Under the pieces are notes generated by a model that did not search any database, was not told the origin of the DNA, and saw only the letters and a list, made by a program, of their open reading frames with translations. Positions 1 through 38,950 of a DNA stretch of 38,950 nucleotides are shown here, in pieces. The position numbers were made by a program, and so were the translations under genes. Location of the stretch: the IMG/VR virus record IMGVR_UViG_3300011965_000002. One strand, written 5' to 3'. The stretch's first letter is position 1. Every line of letters begins with the position of its first letter. The DNA is from a virus.

Positions 1-14
1 CATCATTATCAGAG
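1..14 (+). repeat. Terminal 14-bp overlap CATCATTATCAGAG, second copy at 38936-38949
   Basis: Exact match of 1-14 with 38936-38949, in the same reading frame as the tape measure gene. The last base (38950, A) differs from base 15 (T). Confidence 0.85.
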
Positions 15-3000
15 TTGGGCTCTGCAGCGACAGAGGCAGGGCAAGCATTGAGTGAAGCATCAAGTGGTGCAGAGGAACTTGGGAGCTCCACATCATCCAT
101 AAATTCAGCGCCAATCAGCGAGGTTTCAGGGGCTGCGAATGAAGCAAGTAATGCATTAAATGACACAAGCCAAAGCGCTGAAAACCTTTCAACCAGTCTG
201 ACTAATGTGAACACGAGTGACCTTGTATCCGCCACATCCAGCACCCGTGACCTTGGAACAGAACTAGATAAAACGGCTGATGCCGCTAACAGATTAAGTG
301 ATAAGACTAAGGAGGCTAAGGAGGAAGTAGAGAACACCGGTCAGAGTACTCTCGGCCTTGCAGCCATCACGGCGGCCCTGAGCACACTAACCGCTGGGAT
401 GGAAATAGCTGCAAGGGAAGCAACCAACCTTAACGCTACCTTCCAGAAGATGGCCTCAGCCACTATGCCAGAACCAGCTGTGAGAAGCTTCGTAGCATCT
501 CTCATCAGCGCTAGACTACCACTTGAGGATGTCCTCGCCTACCTGAAGGTTTTGAAACAGAGCGGACTTCAGAGTGCTGACTCGTTACGTCGTGGTGTGT
601 ATGCTCTGAATGACCTCAGCCTTGCTACAGGCGTGAATAGAGATGAAGTTATCAGGTTTACGAATTCATTGATTGTTATGGGTGTCCGCCTCGATGAGAT
701 CCCTAAACATTATAATGCTATCGCATATGCTCAGGCGAACATCGTGGGCGGTTTTGGTACGTATATCAAGTGGATGGAGAAGTTTGACGCGTCATTTAAG
801 GAGTTAGGGCTCACAGTGGATCAGACTGTTGTCCTCATCGCTGCAGCGACGAAGAAGTTTGGTGGTGGTCGTGCAGCGTACACTGGTATGAGCCGGGCGC
901 TCAAGGAGTGTAATGGAGATCTCTCAGTCCTCGAACAAAAGTTAGGCTTGCAGCCAGGGCTCCTCAGCCGAGCATCCGCGATGACATCAAAGTACTCTGG
1001 GAGTATCGAAAAGAAATCAAAGATAATGAAAGAGAATGTCACGATATATGAGCGCCTCCAGGAGGGTGTGGAGAAGCTCCGTATTCAGTTCAGCTGGCTA
1101 ATCGCCCCGATCCTAAGTGTAGGGGGCCTGATTGGGGGTCTTGTGAGTACATATATGGCCTATCAGACGTACCAGTCAGCTGTTGCTACTGCAGCGAACA
1201 CTCAGACACTCGCAGAGATTGCGAAGGCAAAGGCACTCTTCACATCCACCGTGGCGACAGAGGCCCAGGCTGGTGCTGAGACAACAAAGACAGCAGCAAC
1301 TGTAACATCCACTCTTGCGACTGTGAGGAACACTGTCGCGAACCAGGCCCTCATATTATCTACGTATGGTTCAGCCGCGGCCTTGCAGACTGCGGTGGGG
1401 GCTGCGATGGCCCACGCGGGTGCTGTGGCGGTCGACACGGAGGCCCAGAATATGGGTATCCTTGCATCCCTCAGGTACACTGCGGCGCTGGCCTGGCAGC
1501 GGATCGTCACGGCTGCGACGACCGCCTACACGTATGCCCTCGCGGCGGCTCAGTGGGTCTGGAACGCGGCCCTCGCAGCCTCCCCGATCACATGGATCGT
1601 CTTAGCTGTGGCTGCTCTTGCAGCAGCCCTTGTGTATCTCTACTATAATTATCAGCCAGTTACGGATGCTGTGAACAAGTTTGCAGAAGGTCTTAAGTGG
1701 GTTGGTAGTGTTATCTATGGGTACCTCCTTGGAGCGTTTAATGCGCTGAAGGGTGCTCTCTCTGGGGTTGGTTCAGCGATTCAGGGGGCTCTTGGCGGTG
1801 CGTTGAACTGGATTATGGGTGGTCTCAAGCAATTAGCTGGTTTCATCTATTACGTCTTCTTCTCGTTCAAGTTCGTGGATGATATGGCCTCCAGGTTCGG
1901 TTTCCTGGGCCTGGCGATATCATTCGCCATCAATCCAATCAGGACAGTCATTGAATACGTGAAACAACTGAAGATAGCCTGGGATTCATGGAGCAAGACC
2001 AGTGAGGCCCAGAGGGTCTTCGCCGAGCTGGGAGCGGCGTTCAATGAGCTGAAGGCTGCGTTCGGTGAGGTCTGGGCCGCCTTGCAACCGGTCTTCAAGG
2101 CACTCGGGGAAGCGTTCAATGAACTCAAGAACGCGTTGTTCCCGGTCCAGGAGACCAGCAGGGCTGTGCAGTCCACTGGTAAGAGCGCCTCCTCCGCGTC
2201 CGGCCCGATACAGGTCTTCGTGGAGATCATCCGGGCCTTCGCATGGATCCTCACGAACGTGGTGGTCCCAGCCATCAGGATACTGGCGGAGTGGATCCAT
2301 TACCTCGTCCCTGTCTTCCAGGCCATTGGATTCGCCATATCCGCAGTGATACAGGTGATGGTGTTCATCGGGCAGGTGGTCTGGAACGTGATCACATTCC
2401 TCACGAAATTCGGTCAGGCCCTCCAGATGCTGATTAGTGGCCATATCACCTTCTCCCAGTTCATGAGCATAGTCTGGAACCTGTTCAAGGCCACGGTTGG
2501 CCGGATACTCCTCGAGGTGGTCCTCGCAGTGGGCAGGTTCGGGGCACAGTTGATCGGGAAAGCTGTGGCAGCGGCTTTAGGATTCGTTAACTCATTCCTA
2601 TCATTCATAAGGAGCCTACCTGGACGTCTCTGGATTATGCTCCTCATCGTAGTGCAGAGGATCATCGCATGGGCAAACAAGCTCAGGGAGATTGCCCGCC
2701 AGGCTGCCTCTAACTTTGTCTCAAAACTTATTGGAGGAATCACTGGACTCCCTGGACGTGTGAGTAAGGTGATGTGGGATGTGGTGAACGCGATTAAGAA
2801 CAAAGTGAATGACGCCTATAACGCGGCGAAACAGTTCGGTCAGAACGTGTGGAACGGTATCAAGAGTGCGCTGCACATAAAGAGTCCCAGTATCATCTAT
2901 AAACAGATAGAATCAGACACAGCCCTCGTGAATCAGCGATTCAGGAGCATGGCCAGCTCTGCAAGGGCTGCTGCAAGCACGTATGCGAAGGGTATACGTG

Positions 3001-4292
3001 AGGGTATGGATGTTGCAGGTGCAAACGTACCTATTGACGCCACCATAAAGGCTTCACCTGTAGCGGGGGCTGTGGATGAGACAAGGAAGGCCATCACTGA
3101 CATGCATGGAGTTACAAGGTCTGGGCTCACGAGCATCGTGAATACATGGAGCGGTATCAAGGAAACAACACAGAAGACACGTGACTCCTATAATGCTTCA
3201 GTGAATATCACACGAAACGCTATGACCACAATGAGCACCACGACAAAGACCACAATGACCCACATCAAGACAGGCTTCAACTCAATGAAAACTGAAGTAA
3301 TCTCCGCCGCCAGCCGCACAAAGACAGGAGTCACCGGGCACCTGAACACACTCTCAACCAACATCCGCAGATTCTACAACCTCGTCATGAACCCAGGGGC
3401 AGGAGGCCCCGCAGGAGGGCCCTCAAGAAGGGTGTTCACAACTCCCAGCATCCCCAAGCTTGGATGGGGAGGCCCGCCACGAGCCATGACACCCACACCA
3501 CCCCTAACAGGCCCCGAAGCCTATACTGCAAGGGGAGCGCGCCGCCTCCAAAAAATCGCTGAGGAATACTACAAGATGCTATCCTGCCCATCATGCTATG
3601 GGGCTGGCTGGGATTACTCAACGAGGATGACAGGATGGGTGAACCGGACAGTTGACAGGTACCGTGTAGGTTGGCTCCCAGGGATCACCCTGAAAGCCGG
3701 GGATTTCTCAACGTATCCTCCACGAGGACTTGCAGGGAACCTTGCAAGGTTCATCCCATTCATTTCAAGCGTGATAGGGCGAACACATTACAGGTTCTAT
3801 TATGGTGATAGTGGCCTGTCACCGGCCGAACTCCTCAGGGTAGGCTCATTTAACTGTTATGATGGGGCCCGCCTTGTTGTCGCCTTCGCCAGGGCCTTCG
3901 GGCTCCCTGCAAGTATCCGTTGCGGCTTGAGCTGGGGAGGTATACCCCATTGCGCAGCAAATGTCGCGGGGATGTGGTTTGACACAACCGCCTTCCAGCA
4001 AGGATATGGCTGGACAAGTCCCCGGGTAACAGGGTATGGCGGCCCAACAAGCCCAGATATAGGTGTGGGCCCTGCAAGGATTGAGCACCATGCAGGGGAC
4101 GTCCACATCAACGTCGAAGTCAATGGGGCCGCGGGATTGGATGAGAAGGAACTCGCGAAGAGGATAATGGAGGCGGTCACGGATAACAGGACGATCAAAC
4201 GCCTCACAAGCCACCCCGTCTTCCTCCGCAGATTCGATGAGGAGTACGGGCGGTACGCTGTGAATGATGCGAGGAGGACTGGTAGCAGATGA
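3..4292 (+). CDS. Tail tape measure protein (main part; 5' end at 38815) with a C-terminal transglutaminase-like, putative pseudomurein-peptidase domain
   Basis: Over 1400 aa, Ala/Ser/Thr-rich and helical, with hydrophobic segments and Trp/Phe-periodic repeats. Follows the chaperone gene across the junction. C-terminal FNCYDG...PHC...WFDTT motif. Confidence 0.92.
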   Translation, partial: SLSELGSAATEAGQALSEASSGAEELGSSTSSINSAPISEVSGAANEASNALNDTSQSAENLSTSLTNVNTSDLVSATSSTRDLGTELDKTADAANRLSDKTKEAKEEVENTGQSTLGLAAITAALSTLTAGMEIAAREATNLNATFQKMASATMPEPAVRSFVASLISARLPLEDVLAYLKVLKQSGLQSADSLRRGVYALNDLSLATGVNRDEVIRFTNSLIVMGVRLDEIPKHYNAIAYAQANIVGGFGTYIKWMEKFDASFKELGLTVDQTVVLIAAATKKFGGGRAAYTGMSRALKECNGDLSVLEQKLGLQPGLLSRASAMTSKYSGSIEKKSKIMKENVTIYERLQEGVEKLRIQFSWLIAPILSVGGLIGGLVSTYMAYQTYQSAVATAANTQTLAEIAKAKALFTSTVATEAQAGAETTKTAATVTSTLATVRNTVANQALILSTYGSAAALQTAVGAAMAHAGAVAVDTEAQNMGILASLRYTAALAWQRIVTAATTAYTYALAAAQWVWNAALAASPITWIVLAVAALAAALVYLYYNYQPVTDAVNKFAEGLKWVGSVIYGYLLGAFNALKGALSGVGSAIQGALGGALNWIMGGLKQLAGFIYYVFFSFKFVDDMASRFGFLGLAISFAINPIRTVIEYVKQLKIAWDSWSKTSEAQRVFAELGAAFNELKAAFGEVWAALQPVFKALGEAFNELKNALFPVQETSRAVQSTGKSASSASGPIQVFVEIIRAFAWILTNVVVPAIRILAEWIHYLVPVFQAIGFAISAVIQVMVFIGQVVWNVITFLTKFGQALQMLISGHITFSQFMSIVWNLFKATVGRILLEVVLAVGRFGAQLIGKAVAAALGFVNSFLSFIRSLPGRLWIMLLIVVQRIIAWANKLREIARQAASNFVSKLIGGITGLPGRVSKVMWDVVNAIKNKVNDAYNAAKQFGQNVWNGIKSALHIKSPSIIYKQIESDTALVNQRFRSMASSARAAASTYAKGIREGMDVAGANVPIDATIKASPVAGAVDETRKAITDMHGVTRSGLTSIVNTWSGIKETTQKTRDSYNASVNITRNAMTTMSTTTKTTMTHIKTGFNSMKTEVISAASRTKTGVTGHLNTLSTNIRRFYNLVMNPGAGGPAGGPSRRVFTTPSIPKLGWGGPPRAMTPTPPLTGPEAYTARGARRLQKIAEEYYKMLSCPSCYGAGWDYSTRMTGWVNRTVDRYRVGWLPGITLKAGDFSTYPPRGLAGNLARFIPFISSVIGRTHYRFYYGDSGLSPAELLRVGSFNCYDGARLVVAFARAFGLPASIRCGLSWGGIPHCAANVAGMWFDTTAFQQGYGWTSPRVTGYGGPTSPDIGVGPARIEHHAGDVHINVEVNGAAGLDEKELAKRIMEAVTDNRTIKRLTSHPVFLRRFDEEYGRYAVNDARRTGSR

Positions 4293-4489
4293 CGGATAAG
4301 ATAGTGCTCGGATTCGAGGCCTTCAGGGCGAATGGGAGCAGAGTAGTCTCAAGGATCGAAACAAGCCTCTATAACCCTTACACTGAGGGAGTAACCTACG
4401 GTGTCAGCGTCCCAGCGATGAAGGTCTCAGGGGAGGATGATCTCTGGGTGCAGGACGTCGGAGGATTCAGGGTTAGGGTGGTGATCTGA
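4289..4489 (+). CDS. Small hypothetical tail-module protein (66 aa)
   Basis: ATGA overlap with the tape measure stop and overlap with the next start codon. Confidence 0.6.
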   Translation: MTDKIVLGFEAFRANGSRVVSRIETSLYNPYTEGVTYGVSVPAMKVSGEDDLWVQDVGGFRVRVVI

Positions 4490-7257
4490 TGCCAACAGCT
4501 CGACTTTATGGTTCCTCGTTCACGTATCAGAGGGTGGAGAAGGACAAGTATGGGACGTACACGGAGACAACGTGGAGTGACACGGGGAACCTGAAGTATG
4601 ATGATGGGAAGTACGCTAAGACATCCCTCATAGCCTCAAAGTCAGGGACGGCCTCCAAGCCGGGCCGTTTAATAGCTAAGGGATTTTCAGGGTCAATCCC
4701 TGACAATTCTAAGATTAATAGTGTCACTGTGGAGTGGGAGGAGTACATACGTAACCCTAATGGCGGGACAACGGGCGTCCCGAACATCCCAGCAAGGTAC
4801 GTCTGCCTCTATTATGGTTCTTCCTGTTATTCATCCACTAAGACTGTATCGTCAGCAGTCCCCACCTCAGCGACGAAGAGGACACTTACATGGTCCTCTG
4901 GTGAGTTGCCCTCAGGATTCTCCAAGTCTACTCTGACATCATCATCATTCGGGGCCTACCTGAACCCTGCGAGGAATACGACGTACAATCCTGGGTACAT
5001 GTACGTTGATCACATCCAGTTGATCGCTTATTACACCACACCCACTTACTCTGTGAGTATCACGCGTACGGGTGGGGATAAGCCCAGGGACACTGTAACG
5101 TACACTTTCACGCTCACTAATACGAACAACACGCCTCACACTGTCCCGGTTGCCTGCACCATCACTTTCCCATCTGATTTCACCGTAACTGAGGCCAGCG
5201 GGGATGGGACATACACTGCAGGGTCATGGTCTGCCCAGGTCAAATCCACGTACACAGCTGTCCTCACAGTGAAAGGGTACTACACGGGCCCCGGATCCAA
5301 GCAGGTCTCCTTTCAGGAGTCTGTGACGGGCCAGTCCACGACGGACACATTCACAGTCACTAATCCGGCATGTGACATCGTCCAGAAGGACTACGACTAT
5401 GTCCCGAAGGGCGTGCAGGCCCAACTCACGTACACTGCCACCGGCCTCGGCACATCCTCCACCACCGTCTCCATACCCTTCCCAGGGTGGATAACAGTGA
5501 ATGGGTACAGTGGAGACGGGACATACTCGGATGGGACATGGACTATCCCCGCGGGGGGCTCCAGTCCACGCACCGCCACGATCACCCTCACCGTCACGGC
5601 CTCATCGGATGGCGTGTACATGCAGCAGATCAAGGACGCCACGAACACCCTCAGAAGTCTCAGGTGCCTCATCACACGCAGCGACCTCCCCAACCCACCA
5701 ATCTACCAGGTCCGGGTCCCAGTGGACCGCCTATCAGAGATGCCGTGGGGTGAGAAGAAACTTTATCTTATCTTCCCCCTCCAGGTCATGAAGAAGAAGA
5801 CGGATTGGCTCCGCAGCGGCCACATGTATGAGTACAGCGTCGTCGCGGATGGGGAGATCCTTCAATCATTCACACCATCCACCAGCCAGGCCAGCCTGGT
5901 CACGGTGAGACTCCCTGATACACATGTGAAGGACCTCAGGGTCTACCTCCACATGGCCAATGGCCTGGAGCAGGACTTCCAGTACCTCATCGCAGATCCT
6001 GTTATCTCAGAATCCCCGGTCTACAGTGGAGGGGGTGGGGAATGGCGGAGCCTGGTCCTGGATGACTACGTAGCGGTCCTGGAGCCACATGGATCCATCG
6101 GGCCCCTGGAACTCCTACCAGTGGAGCCGGATCTCCCGGACGGTGCGATCATAACAGGGTTCAGGGTTTCATACACCCTCAACACCACGACCCTTGCAGG
6201 TGACGGGTCACAGGGCGACGCGGATGTAGCCTTGACGCTACGTATACACGCAGAGGATGGCGTGTATGGTGAGAAACGACTCATACAGTCAACTGGCTGC
6301 TATGAGGAGGGCTGGCGCTATGATAAGTGGGGCCTCGTGGAGGCGGCCACAGGGAAGCTCCCTGAGACTGAGGATCCCTCCACTGGGGCGGCCCTATTCA
6401 CGTCTGGGTGGCTCGATGAGGTGTACGTCTCCTTCATCTTCGAGAACCCCACAGACAGTGAGGTGGTCGTTGAGGTCAGGGATGTGGCCCTGGAGATCTA
6501 TTACAGCCTTGATGATGACCTGGGACATGCAGTGTACTTTAATGGTGTACCCTCAACGAGTTTCGGGGCCGTGCTCCTGAATGAATCGGAGTTGCAGTTC
6601 GGTGGGAAGCTTAAACTGGACCTGGTGGATTTAACGGGCTGGAATGGGAATTATATTAAATCCGTGAAGATTGAGCCCATCTCCTTCCAACTCAAATTCT
6701 ACATTGGCGGTGAGAATATAGAGGAGGCGACGAGGATGGTCCGCGAATTCCTATCCCTTATCACCCCAGATATCAACAGGTACGGCCTGCCCGAGCCGAT
6801 GGCCCTCACCATGAGTTGGGATGACACAACATACTACTATGTCCTCCAGGATGAAATCGATGTGAAGAACCACGTCTCCGGATATGAGGTCACAGTACCC
6901 GTCACAGTCCCCTCTGGGCATGGGTATGGCCCCATGGTGAAGATGCCGGCCTCAGGGACCCATAAGAGCCTTATACCGCCCCGCCCAATCGTCTACGTCG
7001 ATGTGAATGAGGATGTGGAGAGCGTCACAGTCTCTGAGAGGGTCACCCAGGCCACCCTAACCCTGAACACCCCTATAACCGCCCCTAAGACCCTGATAAT
7101 TGACTCAGAGGATCGGAGGGTGACGGATACTAATGGGGAGGAATACACTGGAAGACTATCACTGAACTCCGAATTCTTCACCCTCCAACGCAGATACGAC
7201 TTCACAGCCTCAGAGGGTGCGACGGTACGGATGATTATACTGAGGGAGGCGAGGTAA
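4489..7257 (+). CDS. Distal-tail (Dit)-like protein with N-terminal beta-sandwich and DUF11-like adhesin repeats
   Basis: Position after tape measure. C-terminal ~240 aa resembles siphovirus Dit (VYFNGVPS...). Two Thr-rich Ig-like repeats with GDGTY..G.W and TA.(L/I)T(V/L) motifs. Confidence 0.65.
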   Translation: MPTARLYGSSFTYQRVEKDKYGTYTETTWSDTGNLKYDDGKYAKTSLIASKSGTASKPGRLIAKGFSGSIPDNSKINSVTVEWEEYIRNPNGGTTGVPNIPARYVCLYYGSSCYSSTKTVSSAVPTSATKRTLTWSSGELPSGFSKSTLTSSSFGAYLNPARNTTYNPGYMYVDHIQLIAYYTTPTYSVSITRTGGDKPRDTVTYTFTLTNTNNTPHTVPVACTITFPSDFTVTEASGDGTYTAGSWSAQVKSTYTAVLTVKGYYTGPGSKQVSFQESVTGQSTTDTFTVTNPACDIVQKDYDYVPKGVQAQLTYTATGLGTSSTTVSIPFPGWITVNGYSGDGTYSDGTWTIPAGGSSPRTATITLTVTASSDGVYMQQIKDATNTLRSLRCLITRSDLPNPPIYQVRVPVDRLSEMPWGEKKLYLIFPLQVMKKKTDWLRSGHMYEYSVVADGEILQSFTPSTSQASLVTVRLPDTHVKDLRVYLHMANGLEQDFQYLIADPVISESPVYSGGGGEWRSLVLDDYVAVLEPHGSIGPLELLPVEPDLPDGAIITGFRVSYTLNTTTLAGDGSQGDADVALTLRIHAEDGVYGEKRLIQSTGCYEEGWRYDKWGLVEAATGKLPETEDPSTGAALFTSGWLDEVYVSFIFENPTDSEVVVEVRDVALEIYYSLDDDLGHAVYFNGVPSTSFGAVLLNESELQFGGKLKLDLVDLTGWNGNYIKSVKIEPISFQLKFYIGGENIEEATRMVREFLSLITPDINRYGLPEPMALTMSWDDTTYYYVLQDEIDVKNHVSGYEVTVPVTVPSGHGYGPMVKMPASGTHKSLIPPRPIVYVDVNEDVESVTVSERVTQATLTLNTPITAPKTLIIDSEDRRVTDTNGEEYTGRLSLNSEFFTLQRRYDFTASEGATVRMIILREAR

Positions 7258-18789: not shown

Positions 18790-19376
18790 CGGTGATGCTC
18801 ATGAAATCTGTTGAATTCGCGTCTAAAGAATGGTGGGAGCTGAATAAGAGAGAATCAGAGAGGATCGAGGATTCCATAGTCCGGCTGAGAGAGGAGGGCT
18901 ATGAATATAAGGAGATCTGTGATGCCCTCGGAGTAAGCCGTGGGAGAGTGTGGAAAGTCCTGTCAAAGCATGGCCTAGTCCACAAGTTCAAGGACATGGA
19001 TAAGGTCACCAGGACTGTTCACAGACTCTACAAGAATGGGTACACCATCCCTGAGATCGCGAGGACTCTGAGGATCAGTGAGAAGTCTGTACGTCAACTC
19101 GTGAGGAAACTTGATTATCCTTACAGGTGGCGTGTGAACAGGGAAGGCAGATTCTTGAAGGTGGGGTGGGAACATCCCCGCCCCTTCACCATCTTTGAGC
19201 TCCATAAAGCCTACAAGCTACACGTTGAGGAGGGGTGGAGTATCCTGAAGCTCATGAAGATCCTCGGTGGCGGATACATGACTGTCAGGAGGTACATACA
19301 AGCATATGGTGCAGGGGAACTCGATGAGGTCTGGGAGGCCTATGATGAGTACCATGGCGACCGTAAGGGCCCTTAA
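18786..19376 (+). CDS. Multi-HTH transcription regulator
   Basis: Three HTH-like units: GYEYKEICDALGVSRGRV, GYTIPEIARTLRISEKSV, GWSILKLMKILGGGYMTV. Confidence 0.75.
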   Translation: MTVMLMKSVEFASKEWWELNKRESERIEDSIVRLREEGYEYKEICDALGVSRGRVWKVLSKHGLVHKFKDMDKVTRTVHRLYKNGYTIPEIARTLRISEKSVRQLVRKLDYPYRWRVNREGRFLKVGWEHPRPFTIFELHKAYKLHVEEGWSILKLMKILGGGYMTVRRYIQAYGAGELDEVWEAYDEYHGDRKGP

Positions 19377-19427: not shown

Positions 19428-19685
19428 GTGTTGTTTTTGACTCGGATGAATAAGATTAGGAATGCGAGGAGGCTTAAGGCCACATTCAAGGGTGAATGTG
19501 ATGAGGGTCGTCTCTATGAGGTAGAATCAGGGGATAACCTGTACAGTGTCCTTGTGACTGATTCCACGATCAAGTGTAATTGCCCTGACTATGAGTACCG
19601 CTGGTTTAAGGCGGAGGCATCATTCGTTTGCAAGCACTGCTGGGCTGTGCTGATGGAGATAGCGCAGAGAGGTGGTGGTTGGTGA
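19428..19685 (+). CDS. SWIM zinc-finger protein
   Basis: CNCPDY...CKHCWAV (C-x-C-xn-C-x-H). Confidence 0.85.
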   Translation: MLFLTRMNKIRNARRLKATFKGECDEGRLYEVESGDNLYSVLVTDSTIKCNCPDYEYRWFKAEASFVCKHCWAVLMEIAQRGGGW

Positions 19686-20008
19686 TGAATTACATAATCA
19701 CAAGGCATCAGGGTACTGTGGATTGGGTGAGGGCTAAACTGAATGGTAAAGGCCTTGACCGGGACGTCTTCGTGGCAGGTCATCTTAGTAATGAGATGAT
19801 CATGCGCATGAAGAAGGGGGATGCTGTCTACGGCATCCTCCCCATCCACCTCATCAAGAGGTTGCTCCGTAAGGGTGTGGAGTATTATCATGTGGTGTTG
19901 CCTCGTGTTCCTAGGGAGTTTCGTGGTAGGGAGTTGTCTCTGGAGCAGGTTAGGGAGTTTGGTGGTGAGATCTGGAAGATTGAAGATATTGATTGTGTGA
20001 AGGTGTAG
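19685..20008 (+). CDS. csx16: Csx16-family protein (CRISPR-associated, ring-nuclease-like), 107 aa
   Basis: ITRHQGTVDWV, GHL, KGDAVYGILPIHL and FRGRELSLEQV follow the Csx16 (VVA1548) signature RH.G..W...V.G.LP..L...RG.EL. ATG 19685 overlaps the SWIM stop. Confidence 0.8.
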   Translation: MNYIITRHQGTVDWVRAKLNGKGLDRDVFVAGHLSNEMIMRMKKGDAVYGILPIHLIKRLLRKGVEYYHVVLPRVPREFRGRELSLEQVREFGGEIWKIEDIDCVKV

Positions 20009-20010
20009 TT

Positions 20011-20427
20011 ATGAATGAGAGGATTGATAGTAGTGTGGTTAATAGTCTGGTTTCTGATGAAAGGTATGATATATTTTTGAGGGGGGATAGGGATGAGTTT
20101 GTTGAGGAGATTTTTAGGCGGGTGTATGGTCTGGTTCCTGATGGGTTGAAGTTTGAGATGGAGTATATTATGAGTGGTGAGGTTTTTGATGAGTTGGATA
20201 TGATTGATTTGGGTCTTGATAGTGAGGTGGTGCTTCGTGAAAAGGATATGATTCTGAGTAGGTTTGATGAGATGAGTGGCAGGGTTGTTAATTGTCTCCT
20301 GGATATGGCTGTGGATGTTGATTTGATCGTGTTTTTTATGAATTGTGTAAGTTTTATTTATGATATGGCTGAGGCGGGCATTGATATGAAGATGGGTCGT
20401 CTTAATAGTAGTATTGTTGAGGAGTGA
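20011..20427 (+). CDS. Highly acidic hypothetical protein, C-poor DNA
   Basis: D/E-rich 138 aa from ATG 20011. Confidence 0.7.
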   Translation: MNERIDSSVVNSLVSDERYDIFLRGDRDEFVEEIFRRVYGLVPDGLKFEMEYIMSGEVFDELDMIDLGLDSEVVLREKDMILSRFDEMSGRVVNCLLDMAVDVDLIVFFMNCVSFIYDMAEAGIDMKMGRLNSSIVEE

Positions 20428-21512
20428 TATGTATGGATGAAAAGATGGAAGCTATAATGTATCGTTTGTCAAGGTTTGATACCTTAAAAGACCGTCTGCA
20501 GATCTATGATGATTTAGATGTTCTTTTAGGTTCTTCTAAGGATATTAGGGATCTTAAAGAGGAGCAGATAGATTATTATGGTATAGATGATGTCAGGGAT
20601 AGGATTGTTGATGAACTTAAAATGTGTGGGATTGGTGATAAATATGTTCCAGAGGTATATGTCCATGAGAAACTCAGGGACATTATAGCCTGTGACAAGA
20701 GGATACAACAGATTGCCGAGGCGATATACAGGGGAGAGGATGATATACCTTCATTACAGTTAAAACCAGTTAAATACAGGGAAGAAAGAGAGTACAGGTT
20801 TGCCTATGACCCTAAAGATGGAGTGATTACTATGGAATTTAAAGATAAAGATATAAACATGGTTATCTGTGAATTGGATCGTCAGGTTACAATGGAGGAT
20901 CTTAAAACTGTTGATTCTGTGAGGGCTGTGATCAGGGAGATGATCAGTGATGTAATCGTGTTAAATGAGGTTGAAGAGATGACATATTCTTTTAAATGTC
21001 AGGTATTTAGGGAGAATTATGAACAGTTAATACGGGATGTTTTTATAGAGGTAGAAGGGTTGCTTGGGGAGGAAATAAAGACAGAATTTGAGTATATTAA
21101 AGATGAGGTTTTCTTTAAAGAGTTTGATAACATTGATTATTGTGCTGATATAGGTGGAGTAGAGAAGATATTTGGTAAGATAGATTCTATTAAAGACAAT
21201 GTGGTCATGGATTTGTTGCATCGTCGCATTGATAAGGAGATAATAGCACGATTTATAAATGCTGTTGATTTGCTTGTATGTATAGCAGAGACTGGGGTGA
21301 GGATAAAACAGGGTTATGGAGATGGAGCGGCTCCGAATGTGAAAGAAAAAGATGCTGGAGCTTATTGGGATAGAATAGGTTCTGATGTATATAAGGTAGG
21401 ATGGGGGGATATTACAGGGTATTATAATGATGTAGAGATCTATATTGACTTAGATGATTCTGTGAAGGCTATTGGAGAATTTGTAGCCGATGCTGTTCTT
21501 AGAACCTTTTAA
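20424..21512 (+). CDS. Acidic hypothetical protein (362 aa), low GC
   Basis: Long open frame in AT-rich DNA; no family recognised. Confidence 0.8.
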   Translation: MICMDEKMEAIMYRLSRFDTLKDRLQIYDDLDVLLGSSKDIRDLKEEQIDYYGIDDVRDRIVDELKMCGIGDKYVPEVYVHEKLRDIIACDKRIQQIAEAIYRGEDDIPSLQLKPVKYREEREYRFAYDPKDGVITMEFKDKDINMVICELDRQVTMEDLKTVDSVRAVIREMISDVIVLNEVEEMTYSFKCQVFRENYEQLIRDVFIEVEGLLGEEIKTEFEYIKDEVFFKEFDNIDYCADIGGVEKIFGKIDSIKDNVVMDLLHRRIDKEIIARFINAVDLLVCIAETGVRIKQGYGDGAAPNVKEKDAGAYWDRIGSDVYKVGWGDITGYYNDVEIYIDLDDSVKAIGEFVADAVLRTF

Positions 21513-21515
21513 TTC

Positions 21516-21545
21516 ATAACTTATAACTTACAAGTTATAAGTTAT
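21516..21545. repeat. Perfect 14-bp inverted repeat ATAACTTATAACTT-AC-AAGTTATAAGTTAT
   Basis: Directly seen, between convergent transcription units; built from tandem TTATAA(C/G) units. Confidence 0.9.
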
Positions 21546-21550
21546 AACAG

Positions 21551-21581
21551 ATGGGGGGAAAAAAGAAGAAAAAGGAAAACA
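21551..21581 (-). terminator. Pyrimidine/U-rich archaeal terminator of the minus-strand cassette
   Basis: TTTTCCTTTTTCTTCTTTTTTCCCCCC on - strand right after the last stop codon. Confidence 0.6.
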
Positions 21582-21719
21582 CTACAGATACTCGATATGT
21601 ATATCAAAATCGGTTAACGCTTCTGCGAAGATGGCAACATAGTCTAACATATCAGGATCATCATAGTAGTATTGATAAATACTGTCTATGAAGTCCTGTA
21701 TCACCACCTCTAATTTCAT
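21582..21719 (-). CDS. Small acidic protein (45 aa, MKLEVVIQDF...)
   Basis: RBS GGGGTGGTG before ATG 21719; Asp/Tyr-rich. Confidence 0.6.
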   Translation of the reverse strand: MKLEVVIQDFIDSIYQYYYDDPDMLDYVAIFAEALTDFDIHIEYL

Positions 21720-21735
21720 AGCACCACCCCACGGA

Positions 21736-23222: not shown

Positions 23223-23846
23223 ATGAAACTCAGCACAATGTACACCAAAGCCACAAAACAAGAACCCAGCCCCGGCAAAGAACAAGGAACGTGCTGCATA
23301 TGCCACCAACAAACCAGACAAGGACACAAAAAAAGACTCGGCACAACCTTCACAACAACAGACCAGACAAGCAGAGGAGACGTCATCTGCCCCTACTGCA
23401 TGACACTCAAAAAAGACAGCAACAAACTCCGCAGGACAATGTGGATCCTCACAGAAGACAAATTCCACCCATTCAAACGCCCAGAACTCCCACAGATCCT
23501 CAAAGAACCACCAGACAAACCATACTACCTCTACCTGACAAGGACGTACAAGAAGATAGGCTGGATAATCATGGACGGCCTCCTGAACCAACCCAACCAG
23601 AAGATCATCAGATTAGCCTGTGACATGGAAACACATACACTAAGCCGTGAATTAGCAGTCCAGACCATAGAATGGATTAACGAGCTCAGAGAAAAATACA
23701 GAATCAGTAAGACGGAGATGAAGACTGGTGATGTGAACCCAGGGAAACTACAGGACATGACCGTCAGGGAAGCCAGGAACCTGAACATCACCCTAAACAA
23801 ATTGAAGGGTAACCCCACATGGGAGTTACTCATAGACATGGCATAA
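23223..23846 (+). CDS. csf1: Type IV CRISPR-Cas Csf1 (Cas8-like large subunit)
   Basis: Zn-finger CCIC...CPYC, then PP..P(Y/F)...TR.YKK.GW and C-terminal GNP.WELL motifs; first gene of a csf2/csf3 operon. Confidence 0.8.
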   Translation: MKLSTMYTKATKQEPSPGKEQGTCCICHQQTRQGHKKRLGTTFTTTDQTSRGDVICPYCMTLKKDSNKLRRTMWILTEDKFHPFKRPELPQILKEPPDKPYYLYLTRTYKKIGWIIMDGLLNQPNQKIIRLACDMETHTLSRELAVQTIEWINELREKYRISKTEMKTGDVNPGKLQDMTVREARNLNITLNKLKGNPTWELLIDMA

Positions 23847-23867
23847 TATTAGAGAGGTGAAAAAGGG

Positions 23868-23999
23868 ATGACCCAAAAGAAGAACCCGGCACCCATCCTC
23901 GTCAGGATAGGGGTATGGGTGACCATGATCTGCCTGGGAATAGTACTATTCTTCGTAGTCCTGGGCCTAATATCCGCAATACTTGGAGGAGGCGTATAG
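23868..23999 (+). CDS. Small membrane protein (43 aa; not in ORF track) inside the type IV operon
   Basis: RBS GAGGTGA. MTQKKNPAPILVRIGVWVTMICLGIVLFFVVLGLISAILGGGV has a basic N-terminus and a long hydrophobic stretch. Confidence 0.65.
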   Translation: MTQKKNPAPILVRIGVWVTMICLGIVLFFVVLGLISAILGGGV

Positions 24000-24000
24000 G

Positions 24001-24348
24001 ATGACTGATGAGAAGACTGAAAACGCCCTCGCAAAGTGCCTTGCGATGACGTATAGGAACATTGAATGGAAGAAAGTTGGTGTGAAATCAGCGTACACAT
24101 ACTTCACAGACCGTGTGCGCGCAGCAAGCCGCATGAGCACCATCACATCCTTCCTAGAAGAACTAAACAGGATGTGCGGTGTCAGCTTCACCCAGCACAG
24201 CCTCAAAGACATAAACACACTCAAAGAGAACGAAGACGAAGCACTCAACCTCCTCAGACACGAGACCAACTACGCAGTCCTACTCGCCCTGGAAGTTGTT
24301 GAGAAACTCAAAATGAAGAAAGCAGAGGATGAAGGTGATGAAGTATGA
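24001..24348 (+). CDS. cas11: Type IV-B small subunit (Cas11-like)
   Basis: 115-aa all-helical protein between csf1 and csf2 (Y..I.W...AYTYFTDRVRAA...FLEEL). ATG 24001 after GGAGGAGG. Confidence 0.7.
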   Translation: MTDEKTENALAKCLAMTYRNIEWKKVGVKSAYTYFTDRVRAASRMSTITSFLEELNRMCGVSFTQHSLKDINTLKENEDEALNLLRHETNYAVLLALEVVEKLKMKKAEDEGDEV

Positions 24349-25187
24349 GGACTGTTAAGTACCCTGGAGTGTTAACTGCCAGGACACCTATCCATCACGG
24401 CGGCCCTGAAGTCTATGGGACGATAAAACCCATACTCACACTCCCCACACTCATAGAGGATGAGAAGGGGATGAGGGTTGAGGACGTCCCCTACATCCAT
24501 GGGAATGCGATCAGGGGGTACCTCCGCCGCCTGGTCATGCAGGACTTCCTGGATCAACTCGATTATGACCTCAAATCAGCGAAGATCTACCATTTTCTCT
24601 TCACAGGGGGCCTCCTGGAGGCTAACACAAAATCCTCTGGTATGATTGACGTGAAACTCAAATCAGGGATCCGCAAGTACATCCCACCAGCAAGTCTCTG
24701 GGGTTCTGCCCTGGGCAATCAGATGCTCCAGGGCAAATTGAAGGTGGACCTTGCAGAACCGATCTGCAAGGAACTTTACTGGCAGCAGAAACAGTACTGT
24801 GACATCGATGGCCCTTCAAGTTATTTCCTGAAGGCGAGGGACTTCGGGACCCGCCTTGATAGTCTCAGGGAGTACAAGGAGGACAGAGAGGATGGAGAGC
24901 AGGCGACGCAGATGAAGTACGAGTTCGAAGTCATCGTGAAGGGTGCGAAGTTCTATCATGAATTCACACTCACAGACACTGACCCTGTTGAGGAATCATG
25001 TTTCATCCGGGCATTGAACCTGTGGAGCGAACGCCCCTACCTCGGGGGGAAGAGCGGTTCAGGGTACGGGAAACTGGATATCCGCTATGACTATGACCCT
25101 GATGCTGAGGCAACATACCTCTCGTATGTCGAGGAGAAGGCTGACCTGATCAGAGAGTTTCTTGATGAATTACAGGCAAACTGGTGA
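24345..25187 (+). CDS. csf2: Type IV CRISPR-Cas Csf2 (Cas7-like RAMP backbone)
   Basis: LTARTPIHHGG, VPYIHGNAIRGYLRR, LFTGG, SLWG, GTRLD, QMKYEFE and the G-rich loop LGGKSGSGYG. Confidence 0.9.
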   Translation: MRTVKYPGVLTARTPIHHGGPEVYGTIKPILTLPTLIEDEKGMRVEDVPYIHGNAIRGYLRRLVMQDFLDQLDYDLKSAKIYHFLFTGGLLEANTKSSGMIDVKLKSGIRKYIPPASLWGSALGNQMLQGKLKVDLAEPICKELYWQQKQYCDIDGPSSYFLKARDFGTRLDSLREYKEDREDGEQATQMKYEFEVIVKGAKFYHEFTLTDTDPVEESCFIRALNLWSERPYLGGKSGSGYGKLDIRYDYDPDAEATYLSYVEEKADLIREFLDELQANW

Positions 25188-25936
25188 TGATCATGTCTCT
25201 TGCTGCCAGGATCCAGGATAAAATCAGCGCCTACCAACCAGGAGGGGATGCACACACACCCTTCAAGGCGGAATTCAGGGTCAAACCACCAGTATTCACA
25301 GGGAACGCATGGATCTACCTCGACGGGATCATCCAGTACCTCTGCACCAGGGAGGCCCTCGGCGGGGACTTCTATGACATCCCCACCAACCACCTATTCG
25401 ACTTCAGCTCCATGCAGCTCCCGTTGAGGCGGACGGGGGACGTGTATCATGCCAGCGTCGGCGTCTATAGGGCCCCGAGGCTCAGAACATCCCGCATCTA
25501 TAAGCGTTTCGAGGATTACTTCATCGAGAACCATCCTCAACTACTCAACAGGTCATATGGTATAGGCAGCGGCCACTACAAGAACCATATGATCACCTAC
25601 CCAATAATAGTCACTGACACCGTGACTTTCTATGGCTGTGGCGACATAGTGGAGGTGGAGAGGCTCCTCAAACACCTCACACACCTGGGGAAGAAGACAG
25701 GCATCGGCGGCGGTAAAATCCTCAAACTCAAGGTCAGGGAGACGGAGATGGATCATAGCTTCTACCATGATGAGTATGGGGTGATGAGGCCCATCCCCAC
25801 AAGCCTGAAGGTCCCCCTACCTGTAGGGGCGGGCCAGGTGATTATGAAGATGGCCTATAAGCCACCATACTGGGACAAGAGGAACATAGACCTCTGCATA
25901 GCCCCCAAGAATCAGCTAGTAGGGGAGGCCCTATGA
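25184..25936 (+). CDS. csf3: Type IV CRISPR-Cas Csf3 (Cas5-like RAMP)
   Basis: LDGII, LPL..TGDVYHAS, KRF, GSG.YK, VTFYGCGD, LGKKTGIGGG, MRPIP and YKPPYW motifs. Confidence 0.88.
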   Translation: MMIMSLAARIQDKISAYQPGGDAHTPFKAEFRVKPPVFTGNAWIYLDGIIQYLCTREALGGDFYDIPTNHLFDFSSMQLPLRRTGDVYHASVGVYRAPRLRTSRIYKRFEDYFIENHPQLLNRSYGIGSGHYKNHMITYPIIVTDTVTFYGCGDIVEVERLLKHLTHLGKKTGIGGGKILKLKVRETEMDHSFYHDEYGVMRPIPTSLKVPLPVGAGQVIMKMAYKPPYWDKRNIDLCIAPKNQLVGEAL

Positions 25937-26583
25937 TAACAGGCGCTGTGACACCAATCAAGGATCATAGGGTCATACATGGCGATGCATTCAACGATGA
26001 CACCTACCAGCTTCTCCTCAATGATAAGAAGGCCGGCATCCTCTTCACAGACCCACCATTTGACCTCTACGACTTCAGTTGGCTTAACAAGGCCCTCAGG
26101 TGCATGGATGATGAGTGGGCTGCATTCATCTGTTTATCAACAGAACAGGTTAAAGTCCTGACAAAGGAATTCTATGACTATGTTAACTATTATTACACGA
26201 TAATAATGAAGCCTAAACCGAATAAGCGCATATTCACACCCATACCTAACTCATACCACATCGTACACCTCAATGGCGGCAGAAAACACATCAGAACTGA
26301 TAAACCCTTATACTCAACCATGAACGAATCCTACTACCTGAACGAACCTGGTGGGTCGAGGATGAAACATGTCCATCAGGGATGGGCGAAACCGCCCGCG
26401 ATGATAACTCACCTCCTCAGCCATTATGTAGTCCCTGGGGATATCATCCTCGACCCATTCGCAGGTTCAGGGGCTACTATAATGGCCGCGGAGAACCTTG
26501 GAGCCGTATGCTACGCGATAGAAAAGGAATTCGAACAGATAGCAGAATTAATGACTAACCTAAGGATGAATGGTCTAAGATGA
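25933..26583 (+). CDS. Amino (N6-A/N4-C) DNA methyltransferase, beta-class motif order
   Basis: Catalytic TDPPF precedes the SAM-binding DPFAGSG; HGDA and AKP motifs; ATGA overlaps at both ends. Confidence 0.88.
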   Translation: MITGAVTPIKDHRVIHGDAFNDDTYQLLLNDKKAGILFTDPPFDLYDFSWLNKALRCMDDEWAAFICLSTEQVKVLTKEFYDYVNYYYTIIMKPKPNKRIFTPIPNSYHIVHLNGGRKHIRTDKPLYSTMNESYYLNEPGGSRMKHVHQGWAKPPAMITHLLSHYVVPGDIILDPFAGSGATIMAAENLGAVCYAIEKEFEQIAELMTNLRMNGLR

Positions 26584-27287
26584 GGAAATTCAAGGAAGCC
26601 ATGAAGATCTACGCAACCCGGGACGAGTTCCTGGAACTCAAAGCCCAAACCCTCAGATTCATCAAGAAACTCTTCAAAGATTACAGGCGTCCATACGTTG
26701 CATTCAGCGGAGGGAAGGACAGCACAGTCCTCCTCCATTTAACCCTCCTCATAGAAAAGGACGTTGACGTTGTTCACACTGACTGGGGCCCAGCATTCGT
26801 CCCGCGCAACATCAAGGACAGGATACTCAGGAATGCTATGAAGATCGGAGCGAAAAAAGAGAACCTTAAAGTCCTCAAGGTGAAGGAAGGTTGGAGGCTG
26901 AGCCAGAGGGAAATCCCAGGCATCCCCCCAAGTTTTTGGGTGGAACTTAAATCCCTGATAGATGCCAACGGCTTCGACCTCGTCCTCCTCGGTTTCAGGG
27001 CTGATGAATCACGTAAACGATGGAAAAGAACAAGGAGGATCCTGGACACGCGCAGAGACCCCCATGAGGCTTACCCTCTAAGGGATTGGAGTTTTGAGGA
27101 CATATATGCATACATATACCATGAAGGCCTGCCTCTGCTCAGACATTATGATGATTATTCAGGGCTTCTCGGGTATGATAAGACGAGGTGGGTTACCTAT
27201 TTTGATAGTGAATTCGATCATCTGGGGGCATCATATGTTGATGGGGTGCTTAGGCCAGAGTACAGGCACCCTGATATGGAGGGATAG
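26580..27287 (+). CDS. cysH: CysH/PAPS-reductase-like PP-loop protein (type IV-B accessory)
   Basis: AFSGGKDS, GFRADES..R and YPLRDWS..DIYAYI motifs; no cysteine residues. Confidence 0.88.
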   Translation: MRKFKEAMKIYATRDEFLELKAQTLRFIKKLFKDYRRPYVAFSGGKDSTVLLHLTLLIEKDVDVVHTDWGPAFVPRNIKDRILRNAMKIGAKKENLKVLKVKEGWRLSQREIPGIPPSFWVELKSLIDANGFDLVLLGFRADESRKRWKRTRRILDTRRDPHEAYPLRDWSFEDIYAYIYHEGLPLLRHYDDYSGLLGYDKTRWVTYFDSEFDHLGASYVDGVLRPEYRHPDMEG

Positions 27288-38104: not shown

Positions 38105-38548
38105 TTGAGCAAAAACAAGGAGAACATCCAATTATTTGAGGAACTCCTGAAAGGGAGGGAAGGATACGTTGAACACAAGGTTGAGGGTCTTGAAAGACCA
38201 GTGAAACTAAGACCACTTACATGCTCTGAGATACTGGAACTGCAGAAGATAGAGAAAGAGGGGATGAAGGCCACAATCGATATAGAGGGCCTCATGAATA
38301 TGTCCCCAGGTGAGCGCAGAGCAGCTGTGAAGGACCAGACACAGAAACTGAAACAAGAACTTGACTTCGCGAAGACACAGGAGGCCAGGGCCAAGGTGAA
38401 AATGACCGCGGTGGCCTACTCCTCAGAGACCCCGATGGAGATAATCCAGAGGCTCCCTCACCGTGTCCTGAATGACCTGTTCATGAAGGTCATGGAGATC
38501 AGCAGCGTATCAGAGGAAGAACTGGACACACTCAACCAATTTCGCTGA
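38105..38548 (+). CDS. Tail assembly chaperone (gpG-like)
   Basis: Between tail tube and tape measure; VKLRPLT..E motif. Confidence 0.75.
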   Translation: MSKNKENIQLFEELLKGREGYVEHKVEGLERPVKLRPLTCSEILELQKIEKEGMKATIDIEGLMNMSPGERRAAVKDQTQKLKQELDFAKTQEARAKVKMTAVAYSSETPMEIIQRLPHRVLNDLFMKVMEISSVSEEELDTLNQFR

Positions 38549-38783: not shown

Positions 38784-38814
38784 ACCACTCCTCATTTTTT
38801 TTTAGGGTGCATGT

Positions 38815-38950
38815 ATGGATGAGATAAGTGTAATTGTAAGACTATTAGACGAGTTCAGTGGGAACCTGTCATCGATGGTATCCACCGCAGAGTCTGCTCT
38901 TTCAAGCCTTGAATCGACAGTAAATTCAGCATCATCATCATTATCAGAGA
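38815..38950 (+). CDS. N-terminus of the tape measure protein (continues at position 15)
   Basis: MDEISVIVRLLDEFSGNLSSMVSTAESALSSLESTVNSASSSLSE is open to the window end and in frame with the ORF at the window start. Confidence 0.85.
   Translation, partial: MDEISVIVRLLDEFSGNLSSMVSTAESALSSLESTVNSASSSLSE

Follow-up and report, generated by a model that had tools for sequence, protein, structure and literature searches.

The 38,950-nucleotide virus record IMGVR_UViG_3300011965_000002, referred to below at its full length as the window, carries a gene for Csx16 that stands alone in a complete tailed virus genome. The product is a true full-length member of the family, and we propose, with a probability of roughly 0.68, that the virus expresses it as a functional, homodimeric ring nuclease that cuts cyclic tetra-adenylate (cA4) and so keeps the host ribonuclease Csx1/Csm6 switched off. 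Taken together, a confirmed Csx16, a virus that is targeted by spacers from CRISPR arrays, and Csm and CARF-HEPN genes lying beside arrays of the same repeat make an anti-type III role for the viral protein appear well motivated, as judged from sequence.

Three profile libraries agreed on the identity of the gene well beyond chance. The open reading frame (ORF) at 19685-20008 matched the Pfam family PF09652 (Cas_VVA1548) with an E value of 5.9e-31 and 107 bits, against a cut-off of 25 bits, and covered profile positions 1-89 of 91; it scored 57.4 bits against NCBIfam TIGR02620 (Csx16), above the cut-off of 46.35, and matched the PADLOC Csx16 models at E 6.5e-33. The Csx16 signature noticed in the original prediction, which had been made from the letters of the DNA, was therefore borne out by all three libraries. 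The ATG at 19685 was taken as the correct start because it aligned with the starts of the relatives and the alternative upstream TTG at 19628 falls within a small SWIM zinc-finger gene. In a Pfam scan at E<=1 the protein returned only PF09652 and no match to PF08960 (DUF1874), so that its separateness from the DUF1874 family, also claimed earlier, held at this level. The PHROG comparison assigned no family to the protein, and no solved structure was found by sequence match.

An exhaustive HMMER search with the protein recovered 553 representative clusters at E<=1e-3. In an alignment of 70 homologues (A2) three positions were invariant (H8, G50 and P53) and eight were at least 90% conserved (R7, H33, D46, L52, R80, G81, E83 and L84); the window protein retains every one of these columns. 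It thus has all of the polar elements typical of the family, namely the N-terminal T/S-R-H, a second histidine, the aspartate before strand 3, the LP loop and the R-G-x-E-L motif. The pairwise ratio of nonsynonymous to synonymous substitution (dN/dS) among viral and cellular copies was 0.08-0.29, and the gene is therefore under purifying selection. The same search showed that the family also holds tandem two-domain proteins of about 205-228 amino acids (aa) and fusions of 400-690 aa with the Csx16 domain at either end (representatives P0012, P0016, P0018, P0021, P0049, P0064-66 and P0087-88).

Structure prediction with AlphaFold (AF2) gave a small single-domain alpha/beta model in which strands and helices alternate, with a confidence score (pLDDT) of 94.6. 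The top match of this model in the ESM Atlas was a Csx16 cluster (TM scores 0.75/0.81, root-mean-square deviation 2.1 across 97 residues); a Foldseek comparison with the PDB and BFVD gave no match at E<=0.001, and a wide VIA structure search returned generic Rossmann-like entries only, among which CARF proteins did not stand out. As a homodimer the protein scored an ipSAE of 0.55, compared with 0.00 for the best control, and of proteins solved as one-chain pairs 20 of 30 attained this mark, of those solved as single chains 1 of 23. Agreement in contacts was 100% across the three runs, with a partner pLDDT of at least 84. The confidence of the model supports a predicted homodimer, the interface of which would take in the conserved P53-H55 loop and the C-terminal strand.

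The genetic context is that of a virus. The structural and packaging genes of the window include small and large terminase subunits, a Mu-like portal, and Mu F-like and protease/scaffold proteins, and they are accompanied by genes for a tail tube, a tape measure and Dit- and Tal-like proteins, by a replication gene (PCNA) and by a lysis gene for a PeiW-like C39 peptidase with a pseudomurein-binding repeat (PMBR). The two ends of the record (1-14 and 38937-38950) share CATCATTATCAGAG, and the tape-measure ORF begins near 38800 and runs on into 3-4292; because of this 14-base terminal repeat and the junction-spanning ORF, the assembly of about 38.9 kb can be read as circular (or circularly permuted) and essentially complete. 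The window is thus a complete tailed virus of a pseudomurein-walled methanogen, and its host is likely Methanothermobacter. No integrase was found among the ORFs scanned. Nor did the ORFs scanned throughout the 38.9-kb genome include a Cas10, a Csm/Cmr protein or a CARF effector, in keeping with the earlier remark that no type III locus surrounds the gene.

The virus is targeted heavily by CRISPR. Metagenomes were scanned with the 30-nucleotide (nt) repeat ATTTCAATCCCATTTTGGTCTGATTTTAAC, which we take to be that of Methanothermobacter thermautotrophicus; the scan returned 100 stretches with 81 arrays and 1435 unique spacers, and the repeat was thereby validated. Eighteen spacers from arrays with this Methanothermobacter-type repeat matched the window, four of them perfectly over their full length and the others with 1-3 differences (examples in Table 1), and other spacers of the same repeat matched the related virus contigs L006, L012, L008 and L021 and the virus PhiF3. 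One small array contig (L042) alone has about nine spacers against the virus lineage. None of the 18 window-matching spacers falls in the Csx16 gene of the window; one, with a single mismatch, lies in the SWIM gene (19460-19491), and in a type IV-B region further downstream three lie on csf1 and two on a methylase gene. In contig L021 a perfect spacer match was found inside Csx16 (2155-2191), the putative counter-defence gene there being itself a CRISPR target.

In the window and the related viruses, 36-37 of 39 distinct protospacers were followed, in the orientation extracted, by NGG, which is 5'-CCN in the sense of the CRISPR RNA (crRNA), and CCN is the protospacer adjacent motif (PAM) deduced for the type I-B system of M. 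thermautotrophicus (PMC4613674). Ten of the 18 window matches would yield crRNAs complementary to plus-strand mRNAs, and a type III complex could therefore use them; the spacer that matches 19002-19037 is an example of a transcript-complementary one. The ATTTCAATCCCATTTTGGTCTGATTTTAAC arrays of two contigs adjoin Cas5-Cas3-Cas4-Cas1, followed by Cas10-Csm2-Csm3-Csm4-Csm5 and then by a CARF-HEPN Csx1/Csm6 gene (E 2.9e-143), and the HD and GGDD motifs of Cas10 are intact in this locus, so that the host locus type appears to combine type I-B with a cyclase-competent Csm complex and a CARF-HEPN effector. The cas content was taken from metagenomic contigs and not from one isolate, and the arrays with matching spacers lie on short contigs, their tie to the type III genes resting on the common repeat. 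The Csm6 of M. thermautotrophicus has tetra-adenylate (A4>P) as its best activator (bioRxiv 10.1101/153262). The gene is thus carried by a mobile element whose host, as seen through metagenomic contigs sharing the repeat, both has the system concerned and targets the element.

These observations can be assembled into the following scheme. Csx16 would be made from the virus's own promoter. Host Csm complexes loaded with anti-virus spacers would bind viral transcripts, upon which Cas10 would produce cA4, and cA4 would switch on the host CARF-HEPN RNase (Csx1/Csm6). The viral Csx16 would take up cA4 in a symmetric site built from conserved loops of both subunits, these being T/S-R-H after strand 1, LP-x-H after strand 3 and R-G-x-E-L, and would cut it to linear products, so that the effector would stay off and infection would go on. 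Cleavage of cA4 by the window protein, and a benefit of this to the virus, are the parts of the proposal that we infer.

Stand-alone Csx16 genes proved to be recurrent. In the phage collection, relatives were found only in the Methanobacterium viruses PhiF3 (42% identity) and Drs3 (35%), the genes of which are already annotated as Csx16/Cas_VVA1548 (PhiF3 ORF30, QGZ14607.1; Drs3 ORF3, AXN53384.1). Searches of viral and genome contigs with the single Csx16 protein gave no match; the contig search with an alignment of 13 sequences returned three viral loci and one unrelated bacterial fragment. A stand-alone gene was present in three IMG/VR contigs, one of which also carries a PeiW-like lysin with a PMBR. 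Over all, stand-alone Csx16 was seen besides the window in eight or more virus or virus-like contigs, the majority of which have pseudomurein endoisopeptidase genes; the carriers are PhiF3, Drs3, L008, L009, L010, L021, L023-25 and L027. The nearest representative clusters all lie in virus-like contigs: that of P0011 contains a PMBR/C39 lysin, RecT and thymidylate synthase, P0013 adjoins a gene for a PMBR with Peptidase_C71, and P0015 is found among dUTPase, Rad52, HNH and methylase genes. In L008, genes for a DUF5591 protein and a TGT-like protein (archaeosine/queuine transglycosylase family) lie 1.2 kb downstream of Csx16 (3162-4681), and these may represent counter-defence by DNA modification.

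In a quick, unrooted tree, which gives no direction of transfer between host and virus, the window type, L008, L009/P0011, PhiF3/P0014 and two cellular Methanothermobacter copies formed one clade (SH-aLRT 97). Members of this clade are about 35-45% identical to most of the family, and their verified contexts are mostly viral. The cellular copies (P0008 and P0010) are orphans at a fixed site on M. thermautotrophicus chromosomes, 74-79% identical to the window protein and with no cas gene within 10 kb. The original prediction had called the viral gene host-derived; with the nearest clusters all in virus-like contigs and the two cellular copies nested in a virus-rich clade of an unrooted tree, that description was not upheld. 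The cellular genes (L003 10001-11308; L014-L017) are flanked by a gene for a PEP-utilising enzyme and by one for an acidic protein of 265-281 aa, which evolves fast (64% identity between two contigs). HepT/MNT, VCA0040-like and NERD genes were also seen nearby, and some of the contigs have a small AbrB/MazE-like ORF in front of Csx16. The acidic cellular gene was considered as kin of two acidic ORFs that follow Csx16 in the window and was rejected, as BLASTP gave E values of 0.25-0.6, hhalign a probability of 0.3% and tblastn no match in the window.

Two sets of metagenomic contigs (L006/L007 and L012/L013) run collinear with the window (87-99% nucleotide identity), and comparison with them showed how the gene is embedded. 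All share a conserved block around a TATA-like box (Table 1), behind which L006/L007 carry Csx16 only, L012/L013 carry the SWIM gene and Csx16, and the window carries the SWIM gene, Csx16 and the two acidic ORFs of low GC content. With gene sets differing among the three collinear variants, Csx16 is thus the one gene to stay constant in an accessory slot that otherwise varies. The block, which runs from TTCATCGTTATA to CGAAG, is kept in L006 and lies there immediately 5' of Csx16. The original prediction had given Csx16 its own TATA box; the box does exist in the window, where it stands in front of the SWIM gene, and it directly precedes Csx16 in L006. Of the collinear blocks of L006, that of Csx16 is the most divergent, with 83% nucleotide identity compared with 87-98% for the others. 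The L012 gene (5321-5644) is a mosaic, its first two thirds being identical in protein sequence to the window and its last third to L006, which points to intragenic recombination. In both relatives the end of a divergent minus-strand cassette comes within about 27 nt of the Csx16 stop.

Table 1. Features of the window that bear on Csx16, its transcription unit, the downstream type IV-B module and CRISPR targeting.
Feature	Position	Strand	Description
TATA-like box TTATATAA	19402-19409	+	read from the sequence; candidate promoter of the unit containing Csx16
Small SWIM zinc-finger gene	19428 (GTG) or 19437 (TTG)-19685	+	82-85 aa; PF04434
Csx16 gene	19685-20008	+	107 aa; N-terminus MNYIITRH; predicted cA4 ring nuclease
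Acidic ORF, 138 aa	20011-20427	+	begins 2 nt past the Csx16 stop; GC 39%
Acidic ORF, 362 aa	20424-21512	+	last gene of the unit; GC 36.5%
csf1	within 23223-25936		type IV-B; E 4e-29
cas11	within 23223-25936		type IV-B; E 1e-23
csf2	within 23223-25936		type IV-B; E 7e-69
csf3	within 23223-25936		type IV-B; E 1e-46
Example protospacer	541-572		
Example protospacer	2708-2743		
Example protospacer	19002-19037		
Example protospacer	23254-23289		
Example protospacer	38116-38164		

The coupling of Csx16 to the SWIM gene, to which attention had been drawn earlier, is real in the window, where the TGA stop of the SWIM gene and the ATG of Csx16 overlap within GTGATG; it is not a conserved arrangement. 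The SWIM ORF matched PF04434 (E 4e-5; 23.5 bits, cut-off 19.6) with the motif C-x-C-x16-C-x-H and is 100% identical in L012/L013. It is missing from L006/L007, was not found beside any other viral Csx16 examined, and its protein had no homologue outside its own cluster. A conserved partnership was therefore ruled out, and the SWIM gene is a lineage-specific accessory and not a constant partner of Csx16. The two acidic ORFs lie on a low-GC insertion of 1.7 kb (20009-21735; 36-39% GC, compared with 50% for the genome) that is confined to the window variant, the 138-aa ORF being absent from L006, L007, L012 and L013. Residues 195-297 of the longer ORF align with residues 23-129 of the shorter (E 1.7e-10, 31% identity), making the two partial paralogues. 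Neither was assigned to a family above threshold by Pfam, PHROG, PADLOC or the Atlas, and for the 362-aa ORF the Atlas gave no usable feature match. A palindrome follows the two ORFs at about 21514-21549.

A type IV-B module lacking an array, of which the original prediction made no mention, lies 3.2 kb downstream of Csx16 (23223-25936). It is followed by genes for a DNA methylase (PF01555) and a PAPS-reductase-like/PP-loop protein (the whole region being 23223-27287). Past 25235, L006 no longer follows the window, its region there being shorter (217 and 136 aa).

Several other roles for the viral Csx16 have to be weighed against cleavage of cA4. The protein could be a sponge for cA4 or a very slow nuclease, which would sequester the messenger and would still act against type III immunity. 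It is predicted to have a small dimeric fold of a kind that binds cyclic oligoadenylates (cOA), a related candidate, Csx15, works well as a sponge and slowly as an enzyme (bioRxiv 10.64898/2026.01.21.700848), and binding and catalysis look the same when a sequence is all one has; however, the polar residues conserved in the family (R7, H8, H33, D46, R80 and E83) are all retained, and the Csx16 that has been tested degraded a 100-fold excess of cA4 completely (PMC12409355), so that we regard a sponge as unlikely. A somewhat less probable idea is that the gene tunes the host, damping cA4 in the manner of cellular ring nucleases so that an infected or carrier cell escapes dormancy or death from collateral RNase activity. 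The orphan copies, 74-79% identical and held at a fixed Methanothermobacter chromosomal site distant from cas genes, indicate that cells can keep a stand-alone Csx16, and a carrier state is conceivable, even if the ORFs scanned included no integrase; mechanistically, however, the reaction would be the same and the virus would still benefit, and the heavy targeting by spacers suits conflict better than cooperation.

A change of substrate seems a little less probable again. As the window clade shares only about 35-45% identity with most of the family, specificity could have shifted to another messenger, such as the cyclic tri- or hexa-adenylates (cA3, cA6) or a cyclic nucleotide of the type used in cyclic-oligonucleotide-based antiphage signalling (CBASS), with another signalling defence as the target, and Crn4 shows that ring nucleases can be broad. 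Set against this are the specificity of the tested Csx16 for cA4, which was kept even at a tenfold higher enzyme concentration (PMC12409355), and the response of the Methanothermobacter Csm6, which answers best to tetra-adenylate (bioRxiv 10.1101/153262). That Csx16 serves as an accessory of the virus's own type IV-B module, and not in counter-defence, is very improbable: the two share a genome at a distance of 3.2 kb and occur together also in L006 and L012, but type IV-B has no Cas10 cyclase and so offers no cOA to degrade, the divergent minus-strand cassette separates the two units, and no Csf2 match was found in the complete Drs3 and PhiF3 genomes or in three other Csx16-bearing virus contigs. 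With these five Csx16-bearing records and the missing cyclase, the link was rejected. The viral cA4 ring nuclease proposed at the outset can also be extended, in a reading that we consider doubtful. Csx16 might in the viruses of Methanobacteriales be primarily a viral gene, the anchor of a counter-defence slot of fast turnover behind a conserved promoter, in which case the products of the SWIM gene and of the two low-GC acidic ORFs, which come and go next to Csx16, might be new co-acting anti-defence factors (for example against type I-B of the host, the source of the PAM-bearing spacers) and the orphan Methanothermobacter copies might have been captured from such viruses. So read, Csx16 in Methanobacteriales viruses would parallel AcrIII-1 in those of Sulfolobales.

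To our knowledge AcrIII-1 is the only proven viral ring-nuclease anti-CRISPR, and we know of no viral Csx16 that has been assayed as an anti-CRISPR so far. If the proposal is true, Csx16 would be a second family of viral ring nucleases in archaea, and would help to explain how methanogen viruses persist in biogas reactors under dense CRISPR targeting; the known principle would be unchanged. The locus is also a natural and compact place to test the idea, in a methanogen that is open to genetics and relevant to industry.

Csx16 was predicted to be a ring nuclease by Makarova et al. (2020), as cited in PMC8284326, and one cellular representative has been shown in vitro to be a ring nuclease specific for cA4 (Hoikkala et al., 2025; PMC12409355), which confirms for the family the connection with cyclic-oligoadenylate ring nucleases on which the original prediction had drawn. 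The idea of a viral Csx16 is not new, because the same work found the gene in two of 28,114 phage genomes, compared with 36 carrying AcrIII-1 (PMC12409355), and Drs3 and PhiF3 were already annotated with it; they are probably the two genomes counted there. What the present analysis adds is the recurrence of stand-alone Csx16 in viruses of pseudomurein-walled methanogens, its place as the fixed member of a slot with changing content, and the dense targeting of this virus by arrays belonging to a type of host locus in which a cyclase-competent Csm complex is present.

The window protein resembles the tested cellular Csx16 (PMC12409355) in family, size, conserved residues, predicted Rossmann-like (CARF-like) fold and predicted dimer; it differs in that its gene belongs to a virus whose genome has no type III locus, that its clade has about 35-45% identity to most of the family and that its activity is predicted only. 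The type III surroundings implied by the term 'CRISPR-associated' are absent here; they are a feature of context, and family membership is unaffected. PhiF3 and Drs3 likewise have stand-alone genes in tailed viruses of pseudomurein-walled methanogens, although with 42% and 35% identity to the window, at other genome positions, among other neighbours and with neither a SWIM gene nor a Csf2 match. The orphan copies of M. thermautotrophicus (P0008 and P0010), also stand-alone, of the same clade and 74-79% identical, differ in their fixed chromosomal site and in a short N-terminal extension. The window Csx16, which has no PF08960 match at E<=1, falls outside the AcrIII-1/Crn2 family (DUF1874, PF08960), yet shares its proposed role as a small, dimeric, virus-encoded enzyme that would destroy cA4 to silence type III effectors. 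As far as its sequence and context indicate, the most likely reading is that of a candidate anti-CRISPR belonging to a known kind and not of a new mechanism.
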